NCBI RefSeq assembly: GCF_002854065.1 | Contig: NZ_CP024147.1 | DNA: 64,000 nucleotides | Direction: 5' to 3' (one strand) | From: Escherichia coli | GTDB taxonomy: Bacteria > Pseudomonadota > Gammaproteobacteria > Enterobacterales > Enterobacteriaceae | Part shown: positions 13,433 to 13,486 of the stretch, one piece after another | Layout of the letters: each line of letters begins with the position of its first letter | How positions within the stretch are numbered: the stretch's first letter is position 1 | Made by a program: the position numbers and the translations under genes | The notes under the pieces: generated by a model | Told to the model about the DNA's origin: nothing | Seen by the model: only the letters and a program-made list of their open reading frames with translations | Databases searched by the model: none

Positions 13433-13486
13433 CGAAAGCGTTCTCCTTAGCGGTGGCCGGGCAGCATCGCCGCCCGGCGTGTGGAC

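Follow-up and report, generated by a model that had tools for sequence, protein, structure and literature searches.

The window considered here is a stretch of 64 kb of Escherichia coli DNA, which is 100% identical to strain 100416 over positions 12700-14500 and 99.94% identical to it over 9.6 kb. Between phnP/yjdP and yjcS, it carries an operon whose genes and transcript are on the minus strand. The first gene encodes an ABC transporter ATPase (15418-16937) and overlaps by 4 nt the start of the permease gene (14447-15421), which itself lies 18 nt upstream of the gene of a periplasmic sugar-binding protein of 313 aa (13487-14428). This protein, annotated as an ABC transporter substrate-binding protein, is RbsB-like, all its RbsB-family matches being below the equivalog cut-offs. 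Downstream are found the genes of a D-lyxose/D-mannose isomerase of 227 aa (12749-13432; NF051472, 439 bits for a cut-off of 350), known as Z5688 in strain EDL933, of a ketose 1,6-bisphosphate aldolase (11874-12734; NF005284, 578 bits for a cut-off of 406), located 14 nt after the isomerase gene, and of a PfkB-family sugar kinase (10876-11877), the last of the operon, which overlaps the aldolase gene by 4 nt. While these junctions are tight (18 nt, 14 nt and 4-nt overlaps), the binding-protein and isomerase genes are separated by a gap of 54 nt, the only junction of the operon with room for an additional element.

The operon was found in 410 of 5,426 complete E. coli genomes, including that of O157:H7 strain EDL933, and the locus is the sugar operon of the O157:H7 island OI-167. 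It is flanked by genes encoding a response regulator (10154-10879, plus strand; Z5684) and a hybrid histidine kinase (16955-19315, plus strand; Z5692), which are reported to be RbfR and RbfS, respectively, i.e. the riboflavin-sensing virulence regulator of OI-167 (PMC9860305). In the available part of that account, the sugar operon lying between the RbfS and RbfR genes is not discussed. An EHEC transcriptome study records an induction of Z5688 in LB at 15 °C (PMC4048457).

Several other features of the locus can be mentioned. The kinase gene (minus strand) and the response regulator gene (plus strand) converge and overlap by 4 nt at their 3' ends (10876-10879), with no terminator between them, and the Serratia, Mixta and Pantoea loci share this convergent overlap. 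A GNAT acetyltransferase gene located between yjdP and the kinase gene is present in strain 100416 and absent from EDL933. By comparison with these two strains, the ATPase gene of the window has lost 1 bp in a C-run near 15691 (GGCCCGCG to GGCCGCG), leading to a frameshift after about residue 415 of 506 and to a premature stop at 15618. This deletion points either to a pseudogene in this strain or to a homopolymer error of the assembly; if real, the operon would be impaired in this strain regardless of the hairpin described below, and possibly decaying.

A stem-loop between the binding-protein and isomerase genes

On the minus strand, the binding-protein gene ends with GTG AAA TAA (stop codon at 13489-13487) and is followed by 8 nt (GTCCACAC), then by the inverted repeat GCCGGGCGGC-GAT-GCTGCCCGGC (13478-13456). 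CACCGCT (7 nt), the isomerase Shine-Dalgarno sequence AAGGAG (13448-13443), a 10-nt spacer (AACGCTTTCG) and the ATG at 13432 come next. In the mRNA, the repeat corresponds to a hairpin of 23 nt, GCCGGGCGGC-GAU-GCUGCCCGGC, whose 5' arm (13478-13469) and 3' arm (13465-13456) form 10 pairs, including one G·U, closed by a 3-nt loop (13468-13466). There is no RefSeq annotation at this site. The sequence-only reading of the window had placed an inverted repeat at 13456-13478, directly after the binding-protein stop and upstream of the isomerase AAGGAG; the coordinates are exact and the arrangement was borne out, with spacings of 8 nt and 7 nt within a single operon. A correction concerns the strand, the genes and their mRNA being on the minus one. 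Its description of a 7-bp stem with a 9-nt loop was an understatement, as this loop pairs internally (G·U, G-C and C-G), which gives the 10 pairs and the 3-nt loop.

The folding-energy check that it had called for yields a stable fold, with a dG of -21.7 kcal/mol (RNAfold; this and all other hairpin energies given here are predictions), the same fold accounting for 0.98 of the ensemble. The 31-nt segment carrying the hairpin has a z-score of -4.5, 1 of 200 dinucleotide shuffles being equally good, and the 76-nt junction, whose centroid fold is dominated by the hairpin, has a z-score of -2.7. Among all 31-nt windows of the minus strand over the 64 kb, the hairpin ranks third for stability, behind two hairpins located at 7857-7887 and 59162-59192 and level with the canonical REPs (-21.2 to -21.3 kcal/mol). 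Its predicted stability thus exceeds chance expectation. The fold is stronger on the mRNA strand than on the opposite strand (-21.7 versus -18.3 kcal/mol) because the G·U pair becomes C·A on the latter.

Several usual explanations for such a structure were discarded. The tail that follows the stem, CACCGCUAAGGAG, includes no U-tract and a terminator scan did not report the hairpin site, which rules out an intrinsic (Rho-independent) terminator. A search with the covariance models of Rfam 15 over 9000-18000 on both strands (E <= 1) gave no match. An internal promoter of the isomerase gene was rejected since the minus strand shows no sigma-70-like promoter over 9800-17500 and the 54-nt gap leaves no room for one. 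Sequestration of the Shine-Dalgarno sequence was ruled out, AAGGAG being unpaired in the centroid fold. Finally, a stem of 10 bp is too short for RNase III, and a site of cleavage by this enzyme was dismissed on that general ground.

A more nuanced proposal is that the hairpin acts as a partial transcription attenuator or pause site that cuts read-through into the catabolic genes, like the leaky rbsB-rbsK terminator, or, in a variant, that it forms the 3' end of an RbsZ-like sRNA. The paralogous rbsDACBKR operon of E. coli K-12 has the same order, i.e. ATPase, permease, binding protein, hairpin and catabolic enzyme. Its sRNA RbsZ (4046-4279 of the K-12 locus) spans the 3' end of rbsB and the rbsB-rbsK spacer and ends with GCGCCACC-CTAACAC-GGTGGCGC-ATTTTAT, a hairpin followed by a U-tract. 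Moreover, REPs have been described as transcriptional attenuators (PMC12306157, introduction). However, the rbsB-rbsK junction is 125 nt long and associates its hairpin with an AUUUUAU tail and an annotated sRNA, whereas the junction studied here is 54 nt long, without U-tract or known sRNA. The 3'-UTR-derived, Hfq-dependent sRNAs of the RbsZ type combine a terminator hairpin with a U-rich 3' tail and a discrete stable transcript; the hairpin is followed by no sign of such a U-rich, Hfq-binding tail. In addition to the silent terminator scan and the lack of any Rfam match, at least five T are found in the 9 nt following the stem in only 7 of the 68 orthologous hairpins of the survey presented below. 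Attenuation, including its sRNA variant, is consequently quite improbable.

Relationship of the E. coli hairpin to REP elements

Membership in the REP family was judged from the five features retained in PMC12306157, namely an extragenic and transcribed location, a palindromic structure, a short length (14-40 nt in E. coli), a match to the consensus and the presence of multiple copies. The hairpin is extragenic, as it occupies the 54-nt gap that separates two co-oriented genes of the same operon, a position that suggests its transcription; it is a palindromic stem-loop of 10 pairs and is 23 nt long. The match to the published consensus, GCCGGATGCGGCGTGAACGCCTTATCCGGCCTACGA (PMC12306157), is partial. 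From the base of the stem, the pairs of the E. coli hairpin are G-C, C-G, C-G, G-C, G-C, G-C, C-G, G·U, G-C and C-G, and those of both the REP consensus and the first malE-malF REP start with G-C, C-G, C-G, G-C, G-C, A-U, U-A (or U-G) and G·U. The hairpin shares with them the outer pairs 1-5 and the G·U at pair 8, whereas pairs 6 and 7 are altered on both sides (A-U to G-C and U-A to C-G), the AT/TTAT core, the internal bulge and the CTAC tail are lost, and the inner bulged helix is reduced to two pairs and a triloop. The REP tail pattern CTTATCCGGCCTAC, searched in the window with at most 2 mismatches, matched 12 canonical REPs and did not match the hairpin site.

The same junction contains a single canonical-looking REP in Citrobacter (loci L020, L022 and L029; GCCGGATGGCGGC-AAAAAT-GCCCTGTCCGGC) and in Pseudescherichia and its relatives (L046, L048 and L055; GCCGGGTAGCGC-TGC-GCTTACCCGGCCTACG). 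The E. coli hairpin and the REP consensus can be aligned with both. We call the hairpin a REP relic, i.e. a worn-down REP copy.

The closest known counterparts are the REPs of the malE-malF junction of E. coli and of the hisJ-hisQ junction of Salmonella, which are also GC-rich stem-loops in sense orientation, located directly after the stop codon of a binding-protein gene in an ABC-importer operon and devoid of a U-tract. The first malE-malF REP of K-12 has the same orientation and lies 11 nt after the TAA, against 8 nt here, and the stabilities predicted from individual folds are similar (-20.6 kcal/mol for the hairpin versus -19.5 to -20.5 kcal/mol for the REPs). However, malE-malF contains three REPs of 30-35 nt grouped in a BIME instead of a single perfect hairpin of 23 nt, and its binding-protein gene is the first of the operon, whereas it is the third here (A-C-B order).

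The hairpin also differs from the malE-malF REP/BIME by its copy number. With a 35-nt query (E <= 10), the variant was detected at exactly one place per genome in the 410 island-bearing E. coli genomes and was not detected in the other 5,016 E. coli genomes. Within the window, no second copy was found at 3 or fewer mismatches, and the half-site GCCGGGCGGCG is not enriched. That this variant is a current multi-copy E. coli repeat is thereby ruled out and, because it is single-copy in each genome, the hairpin was filed as REP-derived rather than as a current member of the repeat family. It is an unannotated, REP-derived member of the well-known class of intercistronic stem-loops. Elsewhere in the window, canonical REP/BIME elements are located at 24127-24210, 29448-29534, 32008-32386 and 50881-50894, and the region of 32.0-32.4 kb comprises four tandem BIME units with a period of 100 nt.

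Single-copy status and divergence from the REP consensus are also what could be expected from a neutral relic, i.e. an old REP insertion that decayed in place and has no measurable effect, the junction being occupied only because it is the one that tolerates insertions and because REP-type elements home to palindromes. However, decay should lose pairing, yet the E. coli stem is a perfect helix of 10 pairs in which the A-U and U-A pairs of the REP have become G-C and C-G. Identity over 55 nt does not fall below 92.7% in any of the 410 E. coli copies. Within the hairpin, the changes seen among five aligned E. coli alleles are either in the loop or pairing-conserving. For example, the common allele of the EDL933 type differs from that of the window by two loop bases and by a G-C to G-U change at the closing pair, its other changes being in the flanks.

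Pairs were compared on individual folds and on an alignment of 7 sequences (E. coli alleles and the Pseudescherichia group), since a MAFFT alignment including Citrobacter misaligned the 3' arm. In the 7-sequence alignment, every one of the 56 cells formed by the outer 8 pairs is paired; a compensatory change (C-G to U-A) is seen at one pair and one-sided changes that keep pairing at two, while none of the slid registers exceeds 50% of paired cells. The observed pairing score was reached by 22 of 500 shuffles, on this small sample of 7 sequences. Across alleles and genera, pairing is retained through G-C to G-U, G-U to A-U and C-G to U-A changes.

Hairpins at the same junction in other Enterobacterales

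The junction was extracted from one genome per species, providing 80 species-level loci with the binding protein (92-100% identity). The order from binding-protein gene to isomerase gene is kept in 69 of them, and 68 were retained after setting aside Pseudenterobacter timonensis (L041), whose junction carries a 1.5-kb insertion. This insertion (4943-6455), possibly an IS element for which the repeat is a target, lies inside the palindromic element of the junction, whose sequence breaks off within CCCTCACCCCGGCCCTCTCCCC. When the isomerase gene is not next (11 loci), GC-rich inverted repeats following the stop were noticed by eye only, with a T-rich tail in some of them (L009, for example).

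All the 68 Enterobacteriaceae loci have a stable single stem-loop at the junction, the best dG being -16.7 kcal/mol or stronger in each, and 62 of them reach -20 kcal/mol (44-nt windows). The gap ranges from 46 to 366 nt (median 107 nt) and is never below 46 nt. When the four junctions of the operon are compared in these species for hairpins with a dG of -15 kcal/mol or stronger, the 68/68 of the binding-protein/isomerase junction contrasts with 10/79 between permease and binding-protein genes (median gap 32 nt), 2/62 between isomerase and aldolase genes (median gap 11.5 nt) and 0/61 between aldolase and kinase genes, for which the median gap is an overlap.

These hairpins belong to unrelated sequence families. 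Classes being assigned by simple regular expressions, REP/BIME elements are found in Citrobacter, whereas Enterobacter, Kosakonia, Leclercia, Lelliottia, Cedecea and Buttiauxella carry CCCTCTCCC...GGGAGAGGG elements, frequently nested in CCCTCACCC...GGGTGAGGG. Buttiauxella brennerae (L082) has an ERIC element, and simple unique hairpins also occur, such as CCCCCGC-N6-GCGGGGG in Kosakonia. The CCCTCTCCC/CCCTCACCC-type and ERIC elements occupy the identical junction, although they have no sequence relationship with the E. coli hairpin and are, as a rule, longer, nested or tandem. A palindromic element of the CCCTCGCCCCTCTGGGGAGAGGG / GGGTGAGGGG type, counted as one copy of the CCCTCTCCC type, is also present in the window itself (20461-20520); the same repeat family fills the junction in Enterobacter, Kosakonia and Leclercia.

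Isomerase homologues of 59-74% identity gave access to eight more distant Enterobacterales, in which the gene order is the same. In seven of them (Yersinia, Serratia, Sodalis, Paramixta, Acerihabitans, Mixta and Pantoea), the junction holds an unrelated and unique GC hairpin (-15 to -32 kcal/mol) beginning 1-18 nt past the stop. Edaphovirga cremea (L095, 3453-3500), with a 48-nt gap whose best fold is -8.2 kcal/mol, has no strong hairpin and is the sole exception among the examined species with this gene order. A hairpin is therefore kept at the junction in 75 of 76 species, a count that overstates the number of independent events since the species surveyed are related and not phylogenetically independent. 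What is conserved at this junction is any strong hairpin; its sequence is not conserved and its exact position is flexible.

These data also bear on the proposal of a neutral relic. Many species have several nested or tandem elements at the junction, and hairpins, including REP-type ones, also occur in other junctions of some species (the 10/79 and 2/62 given above), as would be expected if elements merely accumulate wherever insertions are tolerated. However, none of the 68 species has lost the hairpin or shrunk the gap below the 46-nt minimum, and distant genera devoid of REPs at this site carry unique hairpins. Together with the perfection of the E. coli helix, this makes a neutral relic unlikely.

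The position of the stem relative to the two genes provides information on two other explanations. In the 68 loci, the first stem starts a median of 16 nt after the stop (quartiles 5-24), and up to 58 nt after it in some of them, and the last stem ends a median of 23 nt before the ATG (range 0 to 52 nt). The first explanation is a coupling with translation termination: a ribosome ending at the TAA would meet the stem 8 nt further on and stall, mRNA cleavage and tmRNA rescue would follow, and the output of binding protein would be lowered. This would conflict with the usual need for an excess of binding protein, and it would not be incompatible with stabilisation, as the stabilising malE REP is itself located 11 nt from the stop. 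When a REP lies less than 16 nt from a stop codon, terminating ribosomes are reported to stall and upstream translation to decrease (Liang, Rudd and Deutscher 2015, as cited in PMC12306157); as in these translation-linked REPs, which lie at most 15 nt after the stop, the hairpin is both within this distance and beside carbohydrate-metabolism genes. The first stem is within 15 nt of the stop in 33 of the 68 orthologous junctions; however, it is more than 15 nt away in the other 35. As this stop-proximal distance is not conserved, it cannot be the property under common selection. The hairpin may act as a translation brake in E. coli alongside stabilisation, while translation coupling as the main explanation is rather improbable.

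The second explanation considers the downstream message. After processing upstream, the hairpin would be at the 5' end of the isomerase-aldolase-kinase RNA and would shield it from 5'-end-dependent RNase E. The stem ends 7 nt before the isomerase Shine-Dalgarno sequence, which it leaves free, and the median distance to the ATG across species would suit such a protector. However, this distance varies down to 0 nt and up to 52 nt, we know of no processing site upstream of the stem, and protection of a 5' end is not the role documented for intercistronic REPs. This explanation appears very improbable.

The survey also provided two observations on the operon as a whole. The transporter proteins are far more conserved across genera (L006-L085) than the enzymes of the same operon, with identities of 92-100% for the binding protein and 90-99% for the permease, against 69-96% for the isomerase and 78-93% for the kinase (the latter for loci outside Escherichia). 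Furthermore, in several loci from Citrobacter, Raoultella and other genera, the isomerase gene does not follow the binding-protein gene, indicating that the transporter also occurs without the downstream catabolic genes.

Candidate role and significance of the hairpin

Binding-protein-dependent ABC importers need their binding protein in excess over the membrane and catabolic components. The stabilising role of REPs at malE-malF and hisJ-hisQ is said to have received its classic description from Newbury et al. in 1987 and Stern et al. in 1988. REP hairpins reportedly form barriers against ribonucleolytic degradation and stabilise the mRNAs with which they are associated (PMC12306157, introduction). 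By analogy with malE-malF, the best model, to which we give about an even chance, is that the hairpin is a 3' exonuclease barrier that stabilises the upstream message encoding the transporter and the binding protein. The operon would be transcribed as one message through the hairpin, a single read-through message being proposed because no U-tract follows the stem. After endonucleolytic cleavage downstream of the hairpin, 3'-to-5' exonucleases would halt at the GC-rich stem, and the upstream transporter segment, above all the adjacent binding-protein cistron, would outlive the downstream enzyme cistrons, resulting in more binding protein per transcript. Co-transcription, exonuclease blocking and the effect on expression are all transposed here from REPs of the malE-malF type. 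On the same analogy, the hairpin probably tunes the output of binding protein.

Stabilisation of the binding-protein message, with differential expression within the operon as its outcome, is also what the sequence-only reading had proposed; the REP ancestry had escaped it. This proposal is plausible and partly supported, the comparative evidence being strong. It is consistent with the stable fold, the missing U-tract, the retention of a hairpin in 68/68 loci and in 7/8 distant ones while the other junctions seldom carry one, and the descent from a REP, the class in which such a role was first described; its weak side is that a stem 8 nt from the stop could instead lower upstream translation, the down-regulation expected from translation-linked REPs being opposite to the effect that it proposed. 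The turnover of sequences and the flexible position are exactly the pattern that an exonuclease barrier predicts. Occupancy alone is nevertheless no proof of a function at the RNA level, because REP-type repeats build up wherever intergenic space tolerates them and may favour existing hairpins as insertion sites.

A broader and somewhat more speculative possibility is that the junction is a selected 'hairpin slot'. The operon would need some strong stem-loop at this place, a need repeatedly met across Enterobacterales by unrelated sequences (unique GC hairpins, REPs, CCCTCTCCC/CCCTCACCC-type elements and ERIC). Mobile palindromic repeats would serve as interchangeable functional modules, recruited at one time and replaced at another, with the E. 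coli copy being a REP remodelled into a minimal perfect helix. We regard this as possible, at a little under even odds. The strict retention of such a slot while its occupant changes is the only aspect that is mildly surprising: the hairpin is an ordinary kind of element and the current understanding of REP-like elements is unchanged.

The retention in 75/76 species despite a full turnover of sequences offers a clean comparative example in which structure, and not sequence, is kept at intercistronic REP sites. The locus is suited to a side-by-side comparison of the different ideas about REPs, i.e. mRNA stabilisers, translation brakes or selfish DNA, with Edaphovirga as a natural control for functional comparison. 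If the 'hairpin slot' is real, the locus would amount to a natural experiment in which the structural function of REP-like elements can be told apart from their selfish spread. If the barrier model is true, the hairpin would set the proportion of binding protein relative to catabolic enzymes for an accessory sugar operon of the pathogenicity-associated island OI-167, beside the riboflavin-sensing RbfSR system.
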